NCBI GenBank assembly: GCA_964364045.1
Contig: CAYIKL010000001.1
Span: 24,633-88,632 of the forward strand
Direction: 5' to 3'
DNA from: an uncultured Methanosarcinales archaeon
GTDB taxonomy: Archaea; Nanobdellota; Nanobdellia; Woesearchaeales; JAGLXL01
Length of the DNA stretch: 64,000 nt
In this document: positions 16,847 through 58,507 of the stretch, piece after piece
Numbering within the stretch: the first letter of the stretch is position 1
Layout of the letters: the number at the start of each line of letters is the position of its first letter
The notes under the pieces: model-generated
The model's input: only the letters and a program-made list of their open reading frames with translations
What the model was told of the DNA's origin: nothing
The model's database searches: none
Made by a program: the position numbers and the translations under genes

Positions 16847-16871
16847 AGCGTTTTCTTCCTGTGCATTTTAT

Positions 16872-16959
16872 GGGCCGGTAGCTCAGCCTGGTAGAGCACA
16901 ACGTTCGCATGATTATCCGAGAGACGTTGGGGCCTCGGGTTCAAATCCCGACCGGTCCA
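16872..16959 (+). tRNA. tRNA-Ala(CGC) with a 14-nt intron at the canonical 37/38 site
   Basis: Hand fold: acceptor GGGCCGG/CCGGTCC with G3:U70, D-arm GCTC-AGCCTGGTA-GAGC, anticodon stem CAACG, loop TTCGCAT, then the intron gattatccgagaga, then 3' stem CGTTG. The T-arm is TCGGG-TTCAAAT-CCCGA and the discriminator is A. No CCA is encoded. Confidence 0.8.
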
Positions 16960-16990
16960 TTTTTAGAAAAATTTTGAATAATACCACCAA

Positions 16991-17380
16991 TTATTTCTCG
17001 TCTGCCTTTTCCGCCTTCTCCTCTTCAGCTTTCTCCGTGTTCTGAACTTTCTTTACTTCAGCTTTCTTCACTGGTGCTTTCTTTTTCTCCGTCGGTTTCT
17101 TCCCCTTCCTTACCTTCCTCGGCTTCTCTTTCTTCTCTTTCTTCTTCGTCTCTAAGACTTTCATCCCAAGCTTTTCAAATGCTACTTTCACATCTGCATG
17201 TGACGTGCCGCCTAACTCAACCATCTTGCCCAGCGGCTCAAGGTGCTTTACATTTACTTTTCTGCGCCGCGTTTCTCCATCAACCAGAACAAAGTTCTCA
17301 TCTACAACTTCAACAACAACACAATGCTTTCCTGCATCTCTCCCTGCAGTCTTCACACACAACCGTCCAACATCAAACAT
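16991..17380 (-). CDS. rpl14e: Ribosomal protein L14e with a K/E-rich C-terminal tail
   Basis: MFDVGRLCVKTAGRDAGKHCVVVEVVDENFVLVDGETRRRKVNVKHLEP is a KOW/L14e fold. Confidence 0.85.
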   Translation of the reverse strand: MFDVGRLCVKTAGRDAGKHCVVVEVVDENFVLVDGETRRRKVNVKHLEPLGKMVELGGTSHADVKVAFEKLGMKVLETKKKEKKEKPRKVRKGKKPTEKKKAPVKKAEVKKVQNTEKAEEEKAEKADEK

Positions 17381-17420: not shown

Positions 17421-17696
17421 TTAGGCTTGAGACTTCCGCGCTTTTGCAATAAATTCTCTTCGTGAACAGGATGAACATAACATGCCGCCATACGGCCGTT
17501 CAGGTCTCTTCTGCGTTTTGGACAGCTTGCTGATATCTATTACTCTCCCGCGTGCAACCCCGTGCAAAGCCATTCTGCATAACGCGCAGTGTGCCTTTCC
17601 CGGCTTTCTTCTGCTGTAATGCACAATCGTTCTTCCGCCCGGCGTCTTTACTTTGACACGCCGCAATGTCCGCGATTTTTTATATCCCTGAACCAT
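17421..17696 (-). CDS. rpl34e: Ribosomal protein L34e
   Basis: MVQGYKKSRTLRRVKVKTPGGRTIVHYSRRKPGKAHCALC..., with a zinc-ribbon Cys pattern. Confidence 0.85.
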   Translation of the reverse strand: MVQGYKKSRTLRRVKVKTPGGRTIVHYSRRKPGKAHCALCRMALHGVARGRVIDISKLSKTQKRPERPYGGMLCSSCSRREFIAKARKSQA

Positions 17697-17706
17697 GCCT
17701 GCACAT

Positions 17707-18864
17707 TTAAGCGGCTGGTATATAAAGTTTCCTGCTTTCTGCTTCAGTCAGAATCTCAAGCCTGTTTGCCGTCGGCAGCACTTCAACCATTTTCTTCAGC
17801 GAATCTTTCGCATACGCAACTTTTGCCTGTGTCTCTCCAAACGGCTTGCCTGCATTCTCGTATAGATCCATAAATGCCTTTCTCCCACAACGCCCCTCCA
17901 AAAATCCTAACGTTTTTCTGATCTTTGATAGGGGAACAAGAACTCCATCTTCCGGTCTTCCAAGAATCGCATGAACAGCAGCATATATGGCATCATCAGA
18001 CACCTGCGTGCTATTCGTCTGTCTTTTAGGGGTCATAAGCCGGTTAAGTTTTTTAAGCGCTTCTCCTTCGATTTGTCTTACTCGTTCCCGTGAAAGATCT
18101 ATTTTATCTCCTATTTCCTGGAGCGTCATAGGAGAATAACCATTCAAGCCATATCTCATTTGAAGTATGTCAGCATCGCGTTCGCTCAACCATTCCAGCA
18201 TCTTGTTCATGAGTTCTACTTCATTCCCATATTCCAATGCGTCACCCGGACGCTCTGTATATGAACTCTCCAACGCATCCACAAGCTGCCCCTTATCTCC
18301 AACATGTGTTTCAAGTGACACTGTTGTCCCAAGAGTTAATGCCTTATAAAAAAGCTCATACCTTTCTTCAGGAATGTCCAACTTTGCAGCAAGTTCATGC
18401 ATCGTCGGCTCTCTGCCATTTTCAGAAACCATCTCTCTCGCGACTCTTTTCCAGTGCGCGATTTTCGGTACCAAATATGATGGAACACGTACCGTCTTTA
18501 CCTGATCTACCAGTGCACGTTTGATACTTTGGTGTATCCACCATGTTGCATAGGTTGAGAATCTGCACCCTTCCTCCAAATCAAATTTGCCCGTTGCTTT
18601 CATCAATCCAAGATTCCCTTCTTCAATAAGATCAAGAAGTCCCAACCCTCTGCTGACATACTTTTTTGCAATGCTGACCACAAGACGCAGATTTGAGTTA
18701 ATCAGCGCTTCTCGCGCTTCTTCATCCCCTTCATGTACACGTTCCGCAAGATTCCTTTCTTCTTCTCGTGAAAGAAGCTCAAATCTGTTCATTTCTATAA
18801 AATATTGTTCCAGAACATCTCGTTCATCCATATGTGTGCTAGAATATACACGATTAATAAGCAT
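17707..18864 (-). CDS. Bacterial-type sigma-70 family factor homolog (regions 1.2-2-3-4) with a novel ~100 aa C-terminal extension
   Basis: The sequence [74 protein letters not shown] aligns almost residue-for-residue with region 2.1-2.4 of RpoD ([52 protein letters not shown]...DQARTIRIP). [13 protein letters not shown] corresponds to region 3. ILQMRYGL...[28 protein letters not shown] is region 4.2. Confidence 0.85.
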
Positions 18865-18903
18865 TCCGACGTATAAAAGTCACATCAACTCTATTTGACA
18901 CAT

Positions 18904-19662
18904 TTAATGCAGCTTCAAAACCTTCCGCAATCCCATGCTGAACACCAGAGAAAAGATGATATACAATCCCAACCATCCCGGCTTCCATCCAAACAGCGCA
19001 AACTCGCCCAATGGCTTTAACTTCTCATACCTTATCGTTACAGACTTCACCGGCCCCTGAAATGTCTTCGTTTGCTCTGCATACTCCTGTTTTTTTGTCA
19101 TAACAACCTCTTTTGAATATATCTTTCCTTCATGCTCAATGTCAATGAAATATTCCCCTTCCTGAACGCCCTTCAGCACGAACTCAACCCCTGAATTTAC
19201 ATCCTTCACCTTTTCACCGACAACCCCGATCCCAGGAGGAACAACCACCTGTACTTTTCCCTCCACGCCTTCATCAAACAACACATCAACCGTAAACTCC
19301 TCTCCCGGCATGATAGGCATGAACGCCAAATGTGCATTCAGCCATCCAAAAATCAATATGATGGGGATAAACGTTATCAGTGTTGGCTTGAAGCTGTGCT
19401 TCATGTACTGCATGTTGACGCCCATTGCTTTCTTCTGCAGCTCAACAAGCTTCTCAGGACTATCTCGTGACTCTTTCATCTGCTTTTGATAATCTTTCAG
19501 CTCAGTTTTCAGCCGCTTCATCTCCTCCTGATCAGTAACCCACTTATAGATGAGTGTCACAAGCAGAGAAACAAGAAGTGACACGATCACCAGTGCCCAG
19601 AATGACCCGAGTCGTAACAGAGGATTCAGCACCGGATTTGTAAGTGTTTCAACAATTCCCAT
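18904..19662 (-). CDS. DUF106-family membrane protein (archaeal Oxa1/YidC/EMC3-like insertase) with an extra C-terminal domain
   Basis: The three-TM layout with a coiled-coil loop (KRLKTELKDYQKQMKESRDSPEKLVELQKKAMGVNMQYMK) is typical of archaeal DUF106 proteins encoded next to secY. Confidence 0.6.
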   Translation of the reverse strand: MGIVETLTNPVLNPLLRLGSFWALVIVSLLVSLLVTLIYKWVTDQEEMKRLKTELKDYQKQMKESRDSPEKLVELQKKAMGVNMQYMKHSFKPTLITFIPIILIFGWLNAHLAFMPIMPGEEFTVDVLFDEGVEGKVQVVVPPGIGVVGEKVKDVNSGVEFVLKGVQEGEYFIDIEHEGKIYSKEVVMTKKQEYAEQTKTFQGPVKSVTIRYEKLKPLGEFALFGWKPGWLGLYIIFSLVFSMGLRKVLKLH

Positions 19663-19673
19663 TTTTTCCCCAT

Positions 19674-21020
19674 CTATTCTATAAATTTTCTCATCATCGG
19701 ATGCATGTCCATCATATGCTGTTTTGCAATTTCTTCATAAAGATTGTACACGATCATGACTGCCAGCAAGATGCCTGTTCCCCGTGATAATGCTCCCGTT
19801 AAGTCCGCAAGCGCTGCAACCAATCCTACTGCCGCTCCACCCAGCACCGTCAACGGCCAGATGTATCTTCCTAAGATGCTTTCCAAAACACGTGGATCTC
19901 TTCTGAATCCGGGAATCTGTAACCCACTTGCCATGATGTTCTCCGCCTGGCTGCGCGCATCCATGTTTGCCGTTTGCATCCAAAAGACTGAAAAAATAAC
20001 TGACCCAACTATCATGATCAACATATATAACAGTATGCTCGGCAGTGCCGCAATCAAACCAGACAATCCTGTTGTCAAAAGCACGCTCACCACATCCTGT
20101 GGATTGACAAACGCCGGTGTCCCCCATCCTGCCAGCTGGGTCCAGAGTTGAATGTTTGCCAGCAACGCTGCAACAAGAATGACAGGTATGTTTGATGTGT
20201 AAAAGAACTTCAATGGCCACCGTATCCCATGCCCTCTGACGCGGCCAAAACTTAACGGTATTTCAACCTTCATTGACTGCGTATACACCACAATTAAAAA
20301 CACTGCCACTGTGCTGATGATCTTTGCAAGCTGTAATCCCGCAGTTTGAGGATCACCTAAAGTTAAACTCTGCACCAGTGCAGGTATCGCTCCCGCTGCA
20401 ATGTCGGGATTTGTCGGGCTTGGCAATGGATTCAGTGCTGTAACAAATATCTGCTGCGCAACCCCAGCGACGATAAAAAGGCTTAGTCCGGATCCAAATC
20501 CCCACTTCGATATCACTTCGTCCATAAACATTACAAGGATACCCCCTAACATCAGCTGAAAGACGAGGAGCAGCTGCAGCTGGAAAAACAATGGCGTGCC
20601 TACAAACTCCTGCGACGGCGCCAAGCCGCCCATAAAAACATAGATCGCAGCCTCAAAGACGACAAAAAATAGCCCTAACACTTTCTGGAGTGCCTGGAAC
20701 TTTGAACGCCCTTCCGGTGATCGTAAGTTAAATTTCATGATCTGCGCGCCATTCAACAGCTGCAACACGATCGATGCAGTGACTAATGGACCAATCCCAA
20801 GGCTCATGATGCTTCCAAAGCTCGCACCCAAAATAATAGACAAGAACTCAAATTGCTGTAGCTCGTTTGCCCCAAGGCCGAACAATGGGATGAGGCTGAG
20901 CACCAAAAAAAGGATAAGGGTGATAAGCGTCCACTTCAATTTCTCCTTGAATGACAGGCGCCGTTGCTGTGGCCCTCTCACCCCGGGAAGATTCTGAATA
21001 AATTTTTCCCACAACGCCAT
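19674..21020 (-). CDS. secY: Preprotein translocase SecY (archaeal Sec61alpha type)
   Basis: Ten TM segments; the GIGPLVTASIVLQLL plug/TM2 region is of archaeal type. Confidence 0.9.
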   Translation of the reverse strand: MALWEKFIQNLPGVRGPQQRRLSFKEKLKWTLITLILFLVLSLIPLFGLGANELQQFEFLSIILGASFGSIMSLGIGPLVTASIVLQLLNGAQIMKFNLRSPEGRSKFQALQKVLGLFFVVFEAAIYVFMGGLAPSQEFVGTPLFFQLQLLLVFQLMLGGILVMFMDEVISKWGFGSGLSLFIVAGVAQQIFVTALNPLPSPTNPDIAAGAIPALVQSLTLGDPQTAGLQLAKIISTVAVFLIVVYTQSMKVEIPLSFGRVRGHGIRWPLKFFYTSNIPVILVAALLANIQLWTQLAGWGTPAFVNPQDVVSVLLTTGLSGLIAALPSILLYMLIMIVGSVIFSVFWMQTANMDARSQAENIMASGLQIPGFRRDPRVLESILGRYIWPLTVLGGAAVGLVAALADLTGALSRGTGILLAVMIVYNLYEEIAKQHMMDMHPMMRKFIE

Positions 21021-21472: not shown

Positions 21473-21844
21473 TCACATCATCCTTTTGATAAGATCATCC
21501 ATTTTTTCACCGCGATAGCCCAGCGCCCCACCAGAACTGAACGCTTTTTTTACTCCTTTTCTCCCAAATCCTTTTCGCGGGGGACTCATATGTGCAACGC
21601 CTTCTCTCGCCCTGCTCGCAACTGCACCAGCGACCTCATCACTGACCTCTCCCCACGTCACATAATCTTTGACTTTGGTTATCATGCCAAGCGTTGATGC
21701 ACTGTTTTCAAGCATAACACACGCGTTCTTTTTCCTCAGCCTGAGCATGTGCAGTGTATCGAGTATTGCTTTACTCGCTCTGATTGTTCCCCGCACTAAA
21801 ACAACAGCAACTTTAGGCATTGCGTTCTCCCTCACAGAATCCAA
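21473..21844 (-). CDS. rpl30: Ribosomal protein L30 (uL30)
   Basis: KVAVVLVRGTIRASKAILDTLHMLRLRKKNACVM...GMITKVKDYVTWGE. Confidence 0.8.
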   Translation of the reverse strand: MDSVRENAMPKVAVVLVRGTIRASKAILDTLHMLRLRKKNACVMLENSASTLGMITKVKDYVTWGEVSDEVAGAVASRAREGVAHMSPPRKGFGRKGVKKAFSSGGALGYRGEKMDDLIKRMM

Positions 21845-22574
21845 GCTTTTCTTTTACCTCTTCTTGGACTTTCATCTCAACCAGCTTGTTGAGCGCATCA
21901 ACGCATGCGTACGCGACGTTGAGCGTCTTTCGTGCATTGCCGAACACCTTGCTCCATACATCCTGGATTCCCGCAAGCCGCAATATCTTTTGAACTTCTC
22001 TTTGCGCGACCAGCCCTTTTCCTTTTGGTGCCGGGATGAGTCTCAAACGGATAGAGCCGCACTTCCCTTCAACGGCATAGGGCAGCGAGTGCGGTTCTTT
22101 GCAGCCGCATTCCCAGCTTCCGCATCCCCGCCTAATTCTTTTAATGTTCAGTTTCGCTCTTCTGCTTGCCTTGTCGCGCGCCGGCACGGTTTCTTTGCTC
22201 TTTCCATAGCCAACGCCAACATAACCATTCTTGTTTCCAATAACAGCACATGTGGCAAAATTCGGCTTGTTCCCTTCAGCGGTTTTCTTTTGTGTCTGCC
22301 TAAATACCCTCCTCTGCCCGCCGCCAAACTTCCCTTTTGCCTGCCCGATGAGAAGCAGGTCGCTTTCACAGTTAGGAAGAAGCATCTCAATGATTTCAGG
22401 CTCAAGGATGGGGATGTTCCTGTCGAGTATGGAATCAATGTCTGTGATCTTTCCTTCTTTCACACTTCGTCCAAGCGCAGTTCTTGGCTGCCATGCAATT
22501 GTCTTGTCCTCACTCTCTGGCACCGCACCTACTTCTTTCCCGATCTCCGCTTTCACTACTTCTCCTTCTTTCAT
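21813..22574 (-). CDS. rps5: Ribosomal protein S5 (uS5)
   Basis: GKFGGGQRRVFRQT...CAVIGNKNGYVGVGYGKSKE...GSIRLRLIPAPKGKGLVA. Confidence 0.85.
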   Translation of the reverse strand: MKEGEVVKAEIGKEVGAVPESEDKTIAWQPRTALGRSVKEGKITDIDSILDRNIPILEPEIIEMLLPNCESDLLLIGQAKGKFGGGQRRVFRQTQKKTAEGNKPNFATCAVIGNKNGYVGVGYGKSKETVPARDKASRRAKLNIKRIRRGCGSWECGCKEPHSLPYAVEGKCGSIRLRLIPAPKGKGLVAQREVQKILRLAGIQDVWSKVFGNARKTLNVAYACVDALNKLVEMKVQEEVKEKLGFCEGERNA

Positions 22575-23131
22575 GTGCTCCCCTCTATCTTTTTCTTGAC
22601 ATTATCAAACAGCTGGGCAATTGCAACGGGGTTAACCCCCTGTCGTGCGTATCCTGTAAATCGCTCTTTGTTCTGTTGTGCATATGCGGCAATGTGCCCG
22701 CCTTTAATTCTTTCTTCACTGGGCAAAATTGATTCATCGACAGGAACATGAACTCCCGCATCCTTTAGTCCTTTCACGCATGCATATATTCTTCCACCCT
22801 TCACCGGGCTCCGCAATCCTGTATCGAGTACCGCTTCGCGTACATTTTTCTTGAGCGCAAGCCTGCCGAGCAGATAGCCCACAAGGTATGCAGCTGGCAC
22901 ATTTCCTTTATGCGCTTTCCAGCCAAACCGTTCAAGTGCCTTTCCTGTCGCGCCAACAACGATCTTATCACCTTTATCTTCGTATGTTGCAATTTGCGCT
23001 GTGATGTTGCTCAGTGCCGGCCGGACGATAATCCGCGCCATTCGTGTCCGAAGGAGGCGCAGCCGCTTGTAGTAATTTGTTTTCCCTTCCATCTTTCGCC
23101 TGAACGGCACCGTCTTCAGTTTCGTTCTCAT
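22571..23131 (-). CDS. rpl18: Ribosomal protein L18 (uL18)
   Basis: VPFRRKMEGKTNYYKRLRLL...RIIVRPALSNITAQI. Confidence 0.85.
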   Translation of the reverse strand: MRTKLKTVPFRRKMEGKTNYYKRLRLLRTRMARIIVRPALSNITAQIATYEDKGDKIVVGATGKALERFGWKAHKGNVPAAYLVGYLLGRLALKKNVREAVLDTGLRSPVKGGRIYACVKGLKDAGVHVPVDESILPSEERIKGGHIAAYAQQNKERFTGYARQGVNPVAIAQLFDNVKKKIEGST

Positions 23132-33753: not shown

Positions 33754-35211
33754 TTAAGTTTTTCCAACACCAGACTTCTCTCCATACCTCGCCTTCCTCT
33801 TCGCACAATTCACCGGATTCTTGCATTTCGCACAAACATTCTCCGCACACTTCACGCCCAAACTCTGATAATAAGCAATATTTGAGCAATTGGGAGGTAA
33901 AATCGCTTTCTTCATCTTCGCATACCGCAACTGTCCCACAATATAGTTTTCCCGCAACTGCTCTGGATTCCTCTTGTTCCATTCAGCAACATACTTCTCC
34001 ACCTGCTCGTACGACCAGCCCACGCTTCGCAAAAAATTAATTAACACAAACAACCCTCGTTTCTTTCCATCCTCCATTCCTTTGGAAATCTTCTTGATGC
34101 AGTCGGGGAAATATTCTTCAGCAATTGCAGTCGCAGGTACTTCTATCTCTTTCGACAGTTTCTCTTCCTTCTGAGGAATGGTGTAATCAAATGCCTGGAG
34201 GAACAGATGACGCGCTTCATCGGGCTGTGCAGCTCGCGAAAGAAACATGTGATCAAACTTTATCTTCTCTGGCTTTGCATTTTCTTTGTTAAAATCAATT
34301 ACTCTTTCAGGATCGATGGGAACCGAGACCAAGCCAGACTTCTCATGCAGCGAATAGGGCGCACGATAGAGATGCCGTGAGGAGATGAGCAATGTATCTA
34401 TATCAATTATTTTTTTTGCATCAAATCTTTTTATAAACTGTGTTTTTCCGCAATTGCTGCACTTTTTGTATTCTTTTTTAATCATGATCTTTTTGCACTT
34501 GTCACAGCTCTTGTATGCGATCAGTTCATCAGTGACAAAACGGTTGTCGCACGACGGGCAGATGAATTCTATTTTTGCTCCTTCTTTCTCTTTGTCACAA
34601 TACAAACATCTCCTTTCGACAAGGTCCTGAATCGATAAGCCAAAAGCAGCAGCGACCTGCTCCGGTGTTTGTGCAGGAACAAAATCAAAGAATTTCTCCT
34701 CTAGCAAATGAATTAAATACAGCGCAATGCGCCTCGGTCCTTCAGGGAACAATGCCTGTACACTTTTTCCGTGCACCTTTTGAGGAAACGCTTCAAACGG
34801 CACGCCGATGTGGAAGCCCTTGTTGCCGCTGAACTTGATACTGACAGCATCTATCCCAAAACTTTTGATTAATTTGATGGCAACATCTGCAAATATTTTT
34901 GAGTATTCCCAGTTTTTGCAGTCGATGTCAATGACTAGGTCCCATCCGCTGCGCAGTTCAGCCAATTCACGTGGTTTCATGGTCGGCGATAGCTGCAGCG
35001 CATTGCGCCACCGCTCTTCCGAGCAGTGGAAAGAGGTTGCTCCCTGTTGTGCATTCTCAAGAACATCGTTTTCGTACTGAAGAATATCTGGTCGCGAGCC
35101 AAATGCCTCGCCATAGCGCGCCGCAACCTCGCGATCTCGTGAGTGTGCAACAAGTGCTTCCTGCACTTCTTTTCTCTTGTAATGCCGTAAGATTGTTCCG
35201 ATGGTGAGCAT
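33754..35211 (-). CDS. priS: DNA primase: PriS catalytic domain fused to a C-terminal helical Cys-cluster (PriL-CTD/PriX-like) domain
   Basis: PriS motifs are present (...WDLVIDIDCKNWEY... and FSGNKGFHIGVPFEAF), with a zinc knuckle CLYCDK...CPSCD. The C-terminal 150 aa are helical and end in C-x11-C-x4-C-x2-C. The length is 485 aa, longer than a stand-alone PriS. Confidence 0.75.
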   Translation of the reverse strand: MLTIGTILRHYKRKEVQEALVAHSRDREVAARYGEAFGSRPDILQYENDVLENAQQGATSFHCSEERWRNALQLSPTMKPRELAELRSGWDLVIDIDCKNWEYSKIFADVAIKLIKSFGIDAVSIKFSGNKGFHIGVPFEAFPQKVHGKSVQALFPEGPRRIALYLIHLLEEKFFDFVPAQTPEQVAAAFGLSIQDLVERRCLYCDKEKEGAKIEFICPSCDNRFVTDELIAYKSCDKCKKIMIKKEYKKCSNCGKTQFIKRFDAKKIIDIDTLLISSRHLYRAPYSLHEKSGLVSVPIDPERVIDFNKENAKPEKIKFDHMFLSRAAQPDEARHLFLQAFDYTIPQKEEKLSKEIEVPATAIAEEYFPDCIKKISKGMEDGKKRGLFVLINFLRSVGWSYEQVEKYVAEWNKRNPEQLRENYIVGQLRYAKMKKAILPPNCSNIAYYQSLGVKCAENVCAKCKNPVNCAKRKARYGEKSGVGKT

Positions 35212-49610: not shown

Positions 49611-51725
49611 ATGCTGCAAATGAAGCTTGCTCTTCTTTCCCTCATCCTTATTCTTGTTCCGATGGCTGATGGCCTTGTCATCAACGAACTAATGTATAAC
49701 CCTGCGCAATGTGGTGATTCAGATTGCGAGTGGATTGAATTATATAACAGCAACAACCAAACAATCAACTTGACGGGCTGGACACTCGACGGCAGCTCTT
49801 TAAACGGTATTGAGATTGGCGCACACTCGTACATCATCTTAGCAACCGAGCTGATTGACGGCGATGACGCTGATAACGAAAGCTTTGAAGCGCACTGGGG
49901 GAACAACGACGGCGTTTTTAACGAGTCCGATGGAAATTTCAGCGCCTACCACATTTCCTTCTCTCTCAAAAATTCCAACGACGTTATTCTTCTGACTAAT
50001 GGCTCGCATGGTGATATACTTGAATACAGCTCGAGCTGGGGTGCCAATGGCAACAATTACACGCTTGAAAGAATAAATGCAACAGCAGATAACGATAAAG
50101 ACAACTGGGGCACTAGTCTCATCATAGGCGGCACGCCGGGACGACAAAACAGCTTGCATGGAACGAGCAATACGTACAACATTCACATCAGCGAATTTCT
50201 TCCAAATCCTCATGGCGATGATAACGCACCCATGCCTCAGGGTGAATGGCTCGAGCTCTCCAACGCTGGTGAAGCCACCGACCTGAAATGGGCTTTTTTC
50301 AAAGACAAAGAAGGGCACACTCTGTACATCACCGACACAACCGGCGGCACAACCCTCTCCCTAAATGGGTTCCTGACCGTTTATGTCAACGGACTTTCTG
50401 GTTTTCTCAACAATGGAGTAGAAGAGATTTTTTTTTATTCAAAAGAAGGAAAACTTATTGACAGCGTGAGTTATGCTATAGCCGACGAAGGCAGCTCCTG
50501 GGCAAAAGTTGATGGAAACTGGCAGCAGACAATGCCGACGCCAGGAAAAGAAAACGCAGATTTCAGTGGTGTAAAGAATTCAAAATTTACGATTGACGCT
50601 GTTCAGGATTTAGGCTCAAACAAGGCCGCAGAGTTTGGACAGACCATACGTGTCAATGTTATTGGCTATAAGGGCGATGATACCAAAAGCGTCCTGCGGA
50701 TGTTTGTCTCCGACGGAAATGACAAGATCAGTAAAGAGTCAAAGATCACCATTTCAACCAAGTATACACCATTTGAGCTTGCGGTTCCCATCCAGCTTGT
50801 CCCAAATTGTAATGGGAATTTTGAAGATAAAGAATACATGATTCACATCGGCTGGGCAAGCGAAGACACATTTTTCGACACGCATCCTGTAAAAGTCAGC
50901 GGAATGACTCAGAGTTTATGTGAGAAAGTAGGTAGTGCAAAATCCACCTCGAAAGGCACTTTGAGTTATGATTTGCTGCTCGCCGGCGAGACCGTTCACT
51001 CGGGAGAGCAATTCACGGTCACTGCTGATGTTCGTGGCGATGAAACCAAACACGACATTGCTGTCTGGGCGTATGTCTACCGCGGCTCAAAGACCTATTC
51101 GGGCGAGCAGGAAGCAAACAAGGTAAAATTCCTGCTCCAGCCGCATGAATCAAAAAAAGTTTACCTTCCAATAAGTTTAGGCAACGAAATCGATGACGGT
51201 ACATACAAGCTCAAGCTGAAGCTGAACAAGGATAACCAAAAGACCGACAAGGAGATTACCCGAGACATCACCATCATCAAAGGCCATGGAGAGATTCTGC
51301 GATTTGAGTATGAAACAGATCAAATTACGGTGGAGGCAAAGAATGCACACGCAGTTGACCTAGTCTCCTTTTTTGGCGAGCAGCGGAAGACTATCAACAA
51401 CACAGCGCTGTTCAATGTCTCGCTCATCGAGGGAAAAAACATATTCTTTGCGAAACTTGTTGATGAACAAGAAGACATCACTGATGTCGCACAGCTTAAT
51501 TTGCTGAAAGAAGGCAGCACCATCCGCGAAGTAGCCAATGTAGAACTCAGCGATGAAGGGGAAGAGCTGCTGCGGCAGAAGCTGCGTTCTTTGCGTGATG
51601 TCCAGCAGAAGCGCGGAAGGGTGGTGTATGAGTCCAGCTCAATGAAAGTCCGTGAGTTTCTGCCATGGATGTTTATTGGTGCGCTGCTGCTTCTTATTGT
51701 TGCGCTGGTTTTGAAGAGGGTATAG
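49611..51725 (+). CDS. Surface protein with two lamin-tail (LTD) domains and a C-terminal TM anchor
   Basis: Signal peptide; LTD signature VINELMYNP...DCEWIELYN...INLTGWTL, repeated as IHISEFLPNPHGDD...GEWLELSN. The C-terminal anchor is FLPWMFIGALLLLIVALVLKRV. Confidence 0.65.
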   Translation: MLQMKLALLSLILILVPMADGLVINELMYNPAQCGDSDCEWIELYNSNNQTINLTGWTLDGSSLNGIEIGAHSYIILATELIDGDDADNESFEAHWGNNDGVFNESDGNFSAYHISFSLKNSNDVILLTNGSHGDILEYSSSWGANGNNYTLERINATADNDKDNWGTSLIIGGTPGRQNSLHGTSNTYNIHISEFLPNPHGDDNAPMPQGEWLELSNAGEATDLKWAFFKDKEGHTLYITDTTGGTTLSLNGFLTVYVNGLSGFLNNGVEEIFFYSKEGKLIDSVSYAIADEGSSWAKVDGNWQQTMPTPGKENADFSGVKNSKFTIDAVQDLGSNKAAEFGQTIRVNVIGYKGDDTKSVLRMFVSDGNDKISKESKITISTKYTPFELAVPIQLVPNCNGNFEDKEYMIHIGWASEDTFFDTHPVKVSGMTQSLCEKVGSAKSTSKGTLSYDLLLAGETVHSGEQFTVTADVRGDETKHDIAVWAYVYRGSKTYSGEQEANKVKFLLQPHESKKVYLPISLGNEIDDGTYKLKLKLNKDNQKTDKEITRDITIIKGHGEILRFEYETDQITVEAKNAHAVDLVSFFGEQRKTINNTALFNVSLIEGKNIFFAKLVDEQEDITDVAQLNLLKEGSTIREVANVELSDEGEELLRQKLRSLRDVQQKRGRVVYESSSMKVREFLPWMFIGALLLLIVALVLKRV

Positions 51726-53160: not shown

Positions 53161-55596
53161 ATGGAACAAAACCCGAGGATAATCCCTCGCATCATTGAGC
53201 AGGAAATGAAGCAGGCATATGTAGACTATGCCATGTCTGTCATTGTCGGCAGAGCATTACCAGATGCGAGAGATGGCCTCAAGCCTGTCCATCGAAGAAT
53301 TCTCTTTGCCATGAATGAGATGGGCATGACCCATGACAAGCCCTTCAAAAAGTGCGCTCGTATTGTGGGAGAAGTGTTGGGTAAATTTCACCCCCACGGC
53401 GACACCGCGGTATATGAAACACTAGTAAGAATGGCACAGGATTTTAGTATGCGCCATGTGCTGATTCAAGGACAGGGCAATTTTGGCAGCGTTGATGGCG
53501 ATGCAGCCGCAGCGATGCGATATACAGAGGCAAGATTGCACGAGTTTGCAGAGTACATGCTTGCCGACATTGACAAAGAAACCGTTGATTTCAAGCCCAA
53601 TTTCGATGAGAGCTTGAATGAGCCTGTAGTACTGCCCAGCAAAATACCAAACTTACTCATCAATGGAAGTACGGGCATTGCTGTCGGCATGGCCACCAAT
53701 ATTCCCCCACACAATCTTCGTGAAGTCTGTGACGCAGTAACTCTAGTTATCAACAATCCCGAAGTTGATGCAAATGAGCTCATCGAAGTTGTGCCTGGCC
53801 CGGACTTTCCCACCGGTGCGACGATTGTGGGCAAAAAAGGGATTGAATATGCCTATAAGACAGGAAAAGGAAAAGTAACCATACGCTCCGTTGCTGAAGT
53901 GCAGGAGGGCAGAATTATAGTCACCGAGATTCCATATATGGTGAACAAGTCACAGATGATTGAGGAGATCGCAGACAGCGTGCGCGCAAAGCGTATTGAG
54001 GGGATAAGGAACATCCGCGATGAAAGTGACAGGGACGGCATAAGAATTGTGTTTGAGCTGAAAAGCGGCGCAGACGGACAAGTCGTGCTCAATCAATTGT
54101 ATCAATATTCTCGATTAAAGACAACCTTTGGCATTATCTTTCTTGCATTGGTCGATAATCAGCCAAAACTATTGACATTAAAAGATGCGCTGCAGGAATT
54201 TGTCAATCACCGGCGTGAAGTGGTGCGCAGAAGAACCCAGTTTGATTTAACAACAGCGCAGGAGCGTGCCCATGTGCTTGAAGGGATGATTGTCGCGCTC
54301 AACAATGTCGATGATGTTGTCGCTGGCATCAGGCGCAGCAGGACAGTAGATGATGCACGCCAGTTCTTGCTTGCAACCTATCAATTGACTGAGCTGCAGG
54401 CAAAAGCAATCCTCGAGATGCGCTTGCAGAAGTTAGCCAGCTTAGAGCAGCAGCAGATTCGTGACGAGCACAAAGGGCTTCTTGAGACCATTTCTGAGCT
54501 GCAGAGTATTCTTGCATCTGAGCAGAAAATTTTAGAGGTCATCAAAAAAGAGATACAGGAAATAAAAGAAAAGTTTGGCGATGAGAGGAAGACAAAGATT
54601 GTTGAGGGCGAGGAGGATGATGTTGAGATAGAAGAGCTGATCGAGGAAAAAGATATGGTTGTCACGGTAACCCACTCGGGCTATATCAAACGCATTCCTC
54701 TGGACACCTATCGGCAGCAGCGTCGGGGTGGGCGAGGTGTTACCGCAGCCGGCACGAAAGAAGAAGACTGGGTTGAAGATTTGTTTATTGCAAGCACGCA
54801 TAACTATATCCTGTTCTTCACCAATGAAGGGCAGTTGCACTGGCTCAAGGTGTATGAAGTTCCTGAAGGCGGCAGGACAGCAAAAGGCCGCCCACTCGTC
54901 AATATGCTTTCCCTGTTGCCCGGAGAGAAGGTGAGCGCGTTTGTTCCAGTGCGCGATTTTGAGACGGGAAAATACATCTTCATGGCGACAAAAAACGGAA
55001 CCGTGAAAAAAACGCCGCTTGAATACTTCAGCAGGCCGCGGCGGGGTGGCATCAGAGCTATAACACTAGCCATTGGCGACGAGCTGATTGGCGTGAAGCG
55101 CACCAATGGCAGCAAGCAGATTATGCTGGCAACACGCTATGGCCGGGCAGTGCGGTTTGATGAGAACGATGTGCGCGCGATGGGCAGGACAGCTGGTGGT
55201 GTGAGAGGCATCCGGTTGCGGAAAGATGATGCCGTTGTCGGAATGGAAGTTGCCGATGAAAGTAAAGCATTGCTCACCGTAACCAATAAAGGTTATGGCA
55301 AGCGCACTGCAGTAAATGAATATCGGCTGATCTCGCGCGGTGGAAAAGGAGTGACCAACATTAATCTGACTGAGAAGAATGGTCTGGTTGTTGGCGTGAA
55401 AGCGGTGAAAGACGAGGATGAAGTGATGTTCATTTCTAAGAATGGCATTGCGATACGGACACCGATAAGCGGCATTTCTGTTATCGGTCGTGCAACCCAA
55501 GGTGTTCGTGTGATGCGCTTGGAAGAAGGCGATGAGCTCGTTGCGGTTGAGACGATTGTTTCAGAGGAGTTAAGCACTGTGAATGGCAACGCATAA
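53161..55596 (+). CDS. gyrA: DNA gyrase subunit A
   Basis: AMSVIVGRALPDARDGLKPVHRRILFAMNE...HPHGDTAVYETLVRMAQDFSMR includes the active-site Tyr region, and C-terminal beta-pinwheel repeats follow. No gyrB is adjacent. Confidence 0.9.
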   Translation: MEQNPRIIPRIIEQEMKQAYVDYAMSVIVGRALPDARDGLKPVHRRILFAMNEMGMTHDKPFKKCARIVGEVLGKFHPHGDTAVYETLVRMAQDFSMRHVLIQGQGNFGSVDGDAAAAMRYTEARLHEFAEYMLADIDKETVDFKPNFDESLNEPVVLPSKIPNLLINGSTGIAVGMATNIPPHNLREVCDAVTLVINNPEVDANELIEVVPGPDFPTGATIVGKKGIEYAYKTGKGKVTIRSVAEVQEGRIIVTEIPYMVNKSQMIEEIADSVRAKRIEGIRNIRDESDRDGIRIVFELKSGADGQVVLNQLYQYSRLKTTFGIIFLALVDNQPKLLTLKDALQEFVNHRREVVRRRTQFDLTTAQERAHVLEGMIVALNNVDDVVAGIRRSRTVDDARQFLLATYQLTELQAKAILEMRLQKLASLEQQQIRDEHKGLLETISELQSILASEQKILEVIKKEIQEIKEKFGDERKTKIVEGEEDDVEIEELIEEKDMVVTVTHSGYIKRIPLDTYRQQRRGGRGVTAAGTKEEDWVEDLFIASTHNYILFFTNEGQLHWLKVYEVPEGGRTAKGRPLVNMLSLLPGEKVSAFVPVRDFETGKYIFMATKNGTVKKTPLEYFSRPRRGGIRAITLAIGDELIGVKRTNGSKQIMLATRYGRAVRFDENDVRAMGRTAGGVRGIRLRKDDAVVGMEVADESKALLTVTNKGYGKRTAVNEYRLISRGGKGVTNINLTEKNGLVVGVKAVKDEDEVMFISKNGIAIRTPISGISVIGRATQGVRVMRLEEGDELVAVETIVSEELSTVNGNA

Positions 55597-57809: not shown

Positions 57810-58136
57810 ATGTTTCCAGGAATGAATCCACGCGCAATGAAGCAGGCCATGAAGAAGCTCGGCATGCAGCAAGTTGACATAGAAGCTTCTGAAGTGATTA
57901 TAAAGACCGCAGACAAAGAAATCATCTTCTCAAACCCACAGGTGAGCAAGATCAACATGATGGGCCAGGAAACATGGCAGATAACCGGTGAAGCGCATGA
58001 ACGAACAAAAGAGATGTTCACTGCAGATGATGTAAAGACCGTTATGGAACAGGCGAATGTTACCGAAGAAAGGGCAAAAGAGGCATTGGAAGAAACAAAT
58101 GGGGATTTAGCGGAAGCAATTTTAAAGTTGAAATGA
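57810..58136 (+). CDS. nac: Nascent polypeptide-associated complex protein (NAC alpha, UBA)
   Basis: NPRAMKQAMKKLGMQQVDIEASEVIIKT..., with a C-terminal UBA (EERAKEALEETNGDLAEAI). Confidence 0.8.
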   Translation: MFPGMNPRAMKQAMKKLGMQQVDIEASEVIIKTADKEIIFSNPQVSKINMMGQETWQITGEAHERTKEMFTADDVKTVMEQANVTEERAKEALEETNGDLAEAILKLK

Positions 58137-58507
58137 GAATACTTCTTGTTGATGATAGTAGAGCTGATCGTTTTCGTATAAGGAAACTATTGGAGAAATT
58201 GGATGATTCCGACGTTGAAGAAGCCTGCGATGGAACAGAAGCAGTAACAAAAGCTTCTGGTCTGCCTCATCTTGTTCTTATGGATACATATATGCCCGGT
58301 ATGAAAGGCTACGAAGCCTGCGCGCAAATACGAAGCAAACCATACGGCAAATTCATGGCCATCATAGGAATGTCTTCAATGCCTCGTGCAAAAGAATGGA
58401 AAGCTGCCGGAGCAGATGATTTTATCGATAAGACTAATCTTCTTGAGGGAGATGGTGCAGAATTTGAGGGAAGAATTATGGCGGCAGTAGGTAAATACAA
58501 AAAGTAG
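58133..58507 (+). CDS. Stand-alone response-regulator receiver (CheY-like)
   Basis: MRILLVDDS...LVLMDTYMPGMKGYE, with the conserved D and K of REC domains. Confidence 0.75.
   Translation: MRILLVDDSRADRFRIRKLLEKLDDSDVEEACDGTEAVTKASGLPHLVLMDTYMPGMKGYEACAQIRSKPYGKFMAIIGMSSMPRAKEWKAAGADDFIDKTNLLEGDGAEFEGRIMAAVGKYKK

Follow-up and report, generated by a model that had tools for sequence, protein, structure and literature searches.

The DNA analysed here, a 64-kb stretch of contig CAYIKL010000001.1 from an uncultured archaeon (the window, 64,000 nucleotides), carries a gene for a bacterial-type sigma-70 factor on its minus strand. Upstream of it lie the genes for the EMC3/DUF106 membrane insertase homologue and SecY, and downstream those for ribosomal protein L34e and an L14e-like KOW protein, followed by PheT. 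An earlier note on this DNA, made from the sequence alone, had named the neighbours (L34e 10 nt downstream and DUF106-secY upstream, on one strand), and open reading frames (ORFs) and Pfam matches bear this out. No anti-sigma gene was found adjacent to sigma, whose immediate neighbours are EMC3 and L34e. We regard the descriptive part of our account as almost certain: the gene came by horizontal transfer, is fixed, and encodes a functional sigma to which a new domain has been added.

The same note had seen in the product a full-length sigma-70 factor of bacterial type, encoded by an archaeon, and suggested a profile search and a structural prediction as checks. Both support the description. 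Sigma70_r1_2, r2, r3 and r4 are all significant in Pfam, in canonical order and at 1.7-2.8 times the gathering score. Residues 15-281 align over their full span with Firmicute SigA (phmmer against PDB, E 4.5e-64), and an AlphaFold (AF2) model matches the sigma chains of holoenzyme structures with a Foldseek probability of 1.0. The predicted local distance difference test score (pLDDT) of this model exceeds 90 across most of regions 1.2, 2 and 4. Region 2 comprises 2.2, for docking on the clamp helix, and 2.3/2.4, for -10 melting and recognition; region 3 includes the 3.2 linker or 'finger' (aa ~181-200), where pLDDT drops below 50. SigA of B. subtilis and S. aureus (7ckq_F, 8x6f_E) and RpoS of E. 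coli (5ipl_F) align with aa 15-281 at E-values of 1e-55 to 1e-64, again with Foldseek probability 1.0. Unlike these proteins, the archaeal sigma has neither region 1.1 nor the non-conserved insert; it ends in an additional C-terminal domain, and the RNA polymerase (RNAP) of its host is archaeal. Translation probably starts at M12 (ATG at 18831) and not at the first ATG of the 385-aa ORF, because MDER is where the orthologues begin, and in L004, one of two diverged orthologous loci that we compared with the window (the other is L006), the upstream ATG either falls in another frame or is cut off by a stop. With M12 as the start, the protein would begin ~4 residues ahead of region 1.2.

Within the sigma-70 family, the protein scores 250-267 bits against the RpoD, RpoS and SigA models (NCBIfam), below every equivalog cut-off. 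Group 1 primary sigmas are set apart by the RpoD models, which give 267 bits against a cut-off of 555 and 256 against 572, and by the missing region 1.1. Scores for RpoS are 262 against 378.7 (TIGR02394) and 253 against 394 (PRK05657). An extracytoplasmic function (ECF, group 4) assignment disagrees with the presence of regions 1.2 and 3 and with the anti-sigma result. The architecture, limited to regions 1.2-4.2, is group-2-like, yet the protein stands outside the named equivalogs. We also considered and rejected MzaA of the MZA anti-phage system: the NF041931 score of 260 bits falls short of the 800-bit cut-off, the match covers no more than the sigma part at the C-terminal end of the ~726-aa model, and defence-system genes were not found adjacent to sigma. 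As far as its sequence can place it, the protein is a sigma-70 family member that is not an RpoD, RpoS, ECF or MzaA equivalog.

The residues expected to make a sigma factor work are retained. We compared 44 sequences, 3 archaeal and 41 bacterial relatives, and found the motif columns of regions 2.2 and 2.3/2.4 invariant throughout, as is the 4.2 recognition helix SRERVRQIE (S258-E266, 44/44). The bacterial relatives share 85 invariant columns; the archaeal proteins keep 80, 76 and 76 of these. Their changes are mostly conservative and spare region 2.2, the F102-R116 block (2.3/2.4) and the 4.2 recognition helix, with conservative replacements at C100 and R101 just upstream of that block. We take D78/E82/N84/M88 to correspond to the E. 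coli core-docking residues D403/E407/N409/M413, and F102/Y105/W108/W109/Q112 to the melting/-10 residues F427/Y430/W433/W434/Q437. R259/E260/R263/Q264 likewise correspond to the -35 residues R584/E585/R588/Q589. Each of the three sets, which would serve core docking, -10 melting and -35 recognition, is thereby kept. In place of the extended -10 residues H455/E458 of E. coli, the archaeal protein has Y130/P133, the same as its bacterial sister group.

The surrounding DNA is archaeal, as the earlier note had concluded from markers that included FEN-1, Rpo3 and PriS. We found all three (Rpo3 as an Rpo3-type subunit), along with RFC, PCNA, Hef, class V FBPase, aRNase J, an eRF1-domain protein, TrmB and archaeal RNase P RNA. 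PriS occurs as a PriS-PriL fusion, one 485-aa protein with primase small- and large-subunit domains (33754-35211, (-)). The SecY of the window is 59-82% identical to SecY of 80 genomes titled Woesearchaeota, Nanoarchaeota or Nanoarchaeia. Bacterial rpoB/rpoC were not found among the ORFs scanned in the window, where the RNAP subunit seen is of archaeal Rpo3 type only. An identical sigma protein with both junctions (EMC3 on the upstream side, L34e/L14e/PheT on the downstream side) is present in three independently assembled replicates from 0.1-um groundwater filters (Hainich H51 R1-R3). In other samples, orthologues of 388-390 aa with 54% identity keep the SecY-EMC3-sigma-L34e order. The sigma gene has a GC content of 43.5% and codon usage typical of the window; for the nearest bacterial homologue, GC at third codon positions (GC3) is 96%, in a contig of 74% GC. 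Host-like composition set against this bacterial GC3 indicates that the gene has been compositionally ameliorated. Replicate assemblies, syntenic diverged orthologues and host-like codons uphold the earlier statement that the gene is no contig chimera.

To place the gene in its clade, we fetched the loci of 80 related Woesearchaeota via SecY, each covering SecY +/-10 kb (~1.3 Mb in total); tblastn found sigma in 0/80. The three archaeal sigmas are monophyletic (neighbour-joining bootstrap 172/200) and sister to bacterial sigmas of 273 aa, with 58-61% identity across regions 1.2-4.2. These sister genes adjoin polA-DUF4149 in clearly bacterial contigs, and somewhat more distant bacterial relatives are named Planctomycetota. 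A phylogeny against bacterial sigmas, proposed earlier as a way to the donor, accordingly leads to the 273-aa sigmas, which group with the Planctomycetota-named ones. Short bacterial RpoD/SigA-like sigmas of this kind (273-280 aa; P0005-P0028, some from Planctomycetota) share with the archaeal protein the RIPSY...P that replaces H455/E458, as well as K115. They differ in ending right after region 4.2, in adjoining polA-DUF4149 in high-GC contigs and in working with a bacterial core RNAP. Because sigma is absent from all 80 loci, the archaeal copies are monophyletic and the sister group sits in bacterial contigs, the sequences show one bacterium-to-archaeon transfer into the ancestor of a narrow groundwater lineage of Woesearchaeota (DPANN). 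A viral or mobile origin is rejected, with no viral or mobile-element relatives of sigma found in IMG/VR.

The insertion site can be read from the same relatives. Their commonest arrangement is SecY-EMC3-L34e-L14e with PheT convergent, and L34e and L14e come after EMC3 in 50 of the 80 loci (syntenic tblastn). The SecY-EMC3 and EMC3-L34e gaps measure ~40-150 nt or are occupied by unrelated genes: His-rich membrane proteins, a nucleoside phosphorylase (PNP_UDP_1), GNAT, HATPase and orphans across L010-L089, and an ERG2/Sigma1R-like protein in L021 (14392-15000). The gaps flanking EMC3 are a variable-gene hot spot of the ribosomal supercluster in Woesearchaeota. The earlier note had taken the slot for the usual position of adk and cmk, which does not hold for this clade: neither was found among the gap ORFs sampled in the 80 relatives, and the slot is empty or filled with variable unrelated genes. 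What arrived was, on this comparison, a short group 1/2-type sigma-70 of regions 1.2-4.2, inserted between EMC3/DUF106 and the L34e promoter. At 18899-18907 (EMC3 stop) and 17702-17710 (sigma stop), both (-), the inserted segment is bracketed by a direct repeat of 9 nt, TTAAATGTG, and TAAATG.G is retained at both borders in L004 and L006. The repeat may be an insertion scar or microhomology.

We compared rates of change among the three lineages (window, L004 and L006) with Nei-Gojobori ratios. Synonymous sites are saturated, with a proportion of differences (pS) of 0.57-0.80. Nonsynonymous divergence (dN) between the window and L004 is 0.32 for sigma, 0.27 for L14e, 0.15 for L34e, 0.13 for EMC3 and 0.04 for SecY. 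The ratio to synonymous divergence (dN/dS) is ~0.2 or lower in every region of sigma, the new C-terminal domain included, and 0.11 in region 2. Evolution is slowest in that region, at 77-78% identity between archaeal lineages, and fastest in region 3, at 34-35%. Purifying selection has evidently preserved an intact sigma gene in three lineages at the least and probably in four.

Following region 4, the archaeal copies continue into a domain (aa ~280-385) that is absent from all bacterial relatives. The earlier note had remarked on an extension of ~100 aa without a bacterial counterpart, and the bacterial relatives do end after region 4.2. No Pfam family matches the domain at E<=10. Searched with a profile, 1.84 billion representative proteins yielded only two matches: the orthologue P0003 and P0123, a gene call of 138 aa that covers part of a fourth orthologue. 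Homologues were not found in JGI metagenome contigs, nor beyond the archaeal orthologues in a six-frame hidden Markov model search of the 92 fetched loci. Foldseek top matches are weak and mostly winged-helix regulators, none of them significant. By these comparisons, the domain was gained only after arrival in archaea. The second-closest relative carries a 637-aa orphan in the same slot (L011, 7743-9656) whose C-terminus faintly resembles that of sigma (Y..LLG.PxDGxxVP). Derivation of the domain from such an older archaeal slot gene is unsupported: hhalign gives a probability of 3.5%, and the orphan is a singleton in a collection of 5.8e9 proteins.

Promoter signals in this genome bear directly on how the sigma gene is read. 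TTTATA or TTTAAA begins 27-31 nt ahead of the ATG in 18/81 window ORFs, for example upstream of 12890, 43313, 47190 and 58545. This spacing is the mark of leaderless archaeal promoters; most mRNAs are presumably leaderless, and the motif can serve as a promoter model for the genome. The promoter of L34e falls inside the sigma gene: aaacTTTATAtacc at -30 of L34e lies within the sigma reading frame and encodes RKLYI, so that the embedded promoter DNA is read as ...ESRKLYI. Its TATA-to-ATG spacing of 22 nt equals that of the L34e promoters in relatives without sigma. The stretch AGCAGGAAACTTTATATACC is unchanged in all three lineages, synonymous sites included, against a pS of ~0.65 elsewhere, and the CCN and GCN codons right after it vary. 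Since synonymous invariance coincides with a TATA box at the genome-typical -30, we read the invariant sigma tail RKLYIPAA as a DNA-level constraint of the L34e B recognition element (BRE) and TATA box, not as a protein motif. With its own embedded promoter, L34e, and L14e with it, need not share a transcript with sigma. The earlier view that sigma is probably co-transcribed with core translation genes is therefore not required; sigma has an upstream element of its own.

That element has long invariant blocks and is nearly invariant overall in the three lineages despite saturated dS. It contains a TATA-like TTATTAAT (18853-18860) that starts at -29 from the M12 ATG. It is unique to the sigma-bearing loci, being absent from the 80 relatives and from the bacterial loci. 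We rejected a known RNA as its explanation: Rfam gives no match, and inspection of L004 shows that a long-range stem which may form in the window is not kept there. Autoregulation of sigma through a canonical promoter is likewise not supported, the element misfitting -35/-10 spacing by eye.

Table 1 Features of the sigma locus in the 64-kb window.
Feature	Position	Strand	Details
Sigma-70-family ORF as read	17707-18864	(-)	385 aa; Pfam r1.2, r2, r3, r4
Probable true sigma coding sequence	17707-18831	(-)	374 aa, start M12
Sigma region 1.2	18718-18819	(-)	aa 16-49; PF00140 Sigma70_r1_2, E 1.5e-9
Sigma region 2	18502-18705	(-)	aa 54-121; PF04542 Sigma70_r2, E 2.5e-18
Sigma region 3	18250-18453	(-)	aa 138-205; PF04539 Sigma70_r3, E 1.6e-10
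Sigma region 4	18046-18198	(-)	aa 223-273; PF04545 Sigma70_r4, E 6e-19
Orphan C-terminal domain	17710-18027	(-)	aa 280-385, ~105 aa; small, mostly helical, H-b-H-H-b-H-H
L34e promoter inside sigma frame	17719-17740	(-)	purine-rich BRE-like stretch and TATA box TTTATATA (17719-17726), starting at -30 from the L34e ATG
Conserved non-coding element upstream of sigma	18852-18906	(-)	TAAATGTGTCA...TGTG.CTTTT.T...GAATGCTTATTAAT; ~60 nt
L14e-like KOW protein	16991-17380	(-)	KOW motif E 2.1e-4, 21.4 bits against a gathering score of 22.3 bits
Ribosomal protein L34e	17421-17696	(-)	PF01199, E 4e-23; 10 nt downstream of sigma
EMC3/DUF106 membrane insertase homologue	18904-19662	(-)	PF01956, E 2.5e-16; upstream neighbour
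SecY	19674-21020	(-)	PF00344, E 1.6e-67

Several other features of the window deserve mention. Between PheT and L14e, 90 nt at 16871-16960 (+) match a tRNA in Rfam; ARAGORN assigns no anticodon, and the gene probably contains an intron. Bacterial-type or otherwise unexpected domains occur in GyrA (53161-55596, (+)), a stand-alone response-regulator receiver (58133-58507, (+)) and a 704-aa lamin-tail-domain protein (49611-51725, (+)). A 355-aa ORF at 21684-22751 (+), antisense to the uS5 and uL30 genes, is almost certainly spurious.

Sigma factors in DPANN archaea had been reported before, a point that the earlier note had left open: Castelle et al. 2021 (Front Microbiol, PMC8204110) described sigma-70 genes (fam00359) as particularly prevalent in Woesearchaeota. 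Those authors excluded mis-binning, found anti-sigma factors absent and left open what sigma does beside TBP, TFB and TFE (PMC8204110), in keeping with the earlier note's remark that the function is undescribed. Our literature search met sigma in DPANN in that paper only (PMC8204110). Compared by description, fam00359 and the gene studied here are alike in being bacterial-type sigma-70 genes in Woesearchaeota contigs, flanked by archaeal markers and lacking an anti-sigma partner (PMC8204110). Where the paper offers no locus, architecture or evolutionary analysis, the sigma described here can be placed in a single narrow lineage, within its SecY-EMC3-L34e cluster; its reading frame shares sequence with the L34e promoter, and its C-terminal domain is an orphan. 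New relative to that study are the architecture of sigma plus orphan domain, the dated single insertion in the ribosomal cluster, the purifying selection and the promoter overlap.

As to what the protein does, our preferred reading, to which we assign a probability of roughly one in three, is that sigma has been co-opted as an accessory regulator inside the archaeon, binding promoter-like DNA and the RNAP clamp and using its C-terminal domain as an adaptor. Its expression would be driven by a weak and regulated archaeal promoter of its own, for which the conserved upstream element and its TTATTAAT at -29 are the candidate. Region 4.2 would read a -35-like duplex, regions 2.3/2.4 would capture a -10-like (TATA-like) non-template strand and region 2.2 would dock on the clamp coiled-coil of RNAP. 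The C-terminal domain, placed directly after region 4, would link the protein to an archaeal partner such as RNAP, TFB or TBP, in place of the contact that bacterial sigmas make with the flap tip. Region 1.1 masks DNA binding in free primary sigmas; free of this auto-inhibition, the archaeal protein could act as an accessory regulator or initiation helper with a small regulon. A more far-reaching proposal, which we consider improbable, makes it a genuine promoter-specificity or open-complex factor for the Pol II-like archaeal enzyme, seated by region 2.2 on the clamp coiled-coil, with the C-terminal domain again substituting for the flap-tip contact. The clamp coiled-coil is the universally conserved docking site of TFE and Spt5. 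Several points weigh against co-option as an accessory regulator. For the flap-tip helix, to which region 4 binds, we know of no clear archaeal equivalent. Both the sigma 'finger' and the surfaces for core docking remain bacterial-like and would fit action on a bacterial RNAP equally well; with 64 kb of the genome seen, a bacterial-type RNAP encoded elsewhere is formally possible. The fold of the C-terminal domain yields no functional clue. Around the locus (8-28 kb), -35/-10 sites of sigma-70 type are no more frequent than expected, with 24 observed against 24.6 +/- 4.6. A near-consensus site, TTGACA-18-TATATT, lies inside EMC3 (19116-19145, (-)), ~285 nt upstream of sigma, and is not conserved in L004 or L006, so we regard it as a chance match. 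Given no enrichment and a best site that is not conserved, no regulon can be proposed.

Region 2.2, the hydrophobic core of region 4 and the 3.2 finger, surfaces of use only in a bacterial holoenzyme, have stayed at bacterial levels of conservation after long archaeal residence, as they might if the protein worked on a bacterial enzyme. The archaeon could pass sigma into an attached bacterium, for example through a cytoplasmic bridge, to redirect or jam the core RNAP of its partner in the manner of phage sigmas, with the C-terminal domain serving delivery or targeting. Phage sigmas (SPO1 gp28, T4 gp55) and plant plastid SIG proteins redirect a bacterial-type RNAP that is not encoded alongside them, and so provide a conceptual model of a sigma gene in a genome without its cognate core enzyme; their target is known and reachable, whereas no such target is known for the archaeal sigma. 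The source material, a 0.1-um groundwater fraction, agrees with a life in attachment, such fractions being rich in ultra-small symbionts, and Castelle et al. 2021 suggested that some DPANN may have bacterial hosts (PMC8204110). By eye (no predictor was run), the sequence shows neither a signal peptide nor a known secretion motif, and the gene sits in a core ribosomal cluster with an archaeal-type promoter instead of an effector island. Nor do we know of any documented protein transfer between DPANN and bacteria, and the IMG/VR search gave no viral or mobile-element relatives; we hold such a host-directed role to be unlikely. The same retained surfaces tell against a regulator that merely binds DNA, in which domains 2 and 4 would serve as helix-turn-helix and single-stranded DNA modules, for instance in a repressor competing with TBP/TFB: freed from RNAP contact, the region 2.2 docking helix and 3.2 finger would be expected to decay, yet both are kept. 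The absence of region 1.1, the resemblance of the -10 consensus to the local TATA box TTTATA/TTTAAA and the mostly winged-helix, non-significant Foldseek matches of the C-terminal domain lend this idea some appeal, and we give it a similarly small chance. A decaying or neutral passenger would account for a sigma that evolves faster than SecY, EMC3 and L34e and shows 5-9 changes at bacterially invariant columns, against 0-2 per bacterial sequence. Intact ORFs in three lineages with saturated dS, low dN/dS in every region and a conserved upstream element make this very improbable. Finally, that sigma factors are otherwise bacterial and that sigma GC3, at 37.6%, lies ~2 SD below the window mean might recall a bacterial fragment mis-joined or mis-binned into an archaeal contig. 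We discount this almost completely and reject an assembly chimera, for the same junctions appear in three independent assemblies, diverged syntenic orthologues exist in other samples, the L34e promoter is interleaved with the sigma frame and codon usage is typical of the window.

Sigma versus TBP/TFB is a textbook marker of bacterial versus archaeal and eukaryotic transcription initiation. Here, an intact sigma with its docking and promoter-reading residues has long been kept under selection in an archaeon. The locus offers a well-defined test case, with boundaries, a probable start, promoter context, three orthologues and a bacterial sister group established, and recognizing the promoter imprint behind the 'conserved C-terminal peptide' averts a wrong experimental lead. 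If the host-directed explanation were true, some DPANN archaea would manipulate bacterial partners. If the protein has been co-opted, sigma modules would be re-usable with a Pol II-like polymerase, and a sigma truly working on archaeal RNAP would join the bacterial with the archaeal/eukaryotic initiation system in one natural hybrid.

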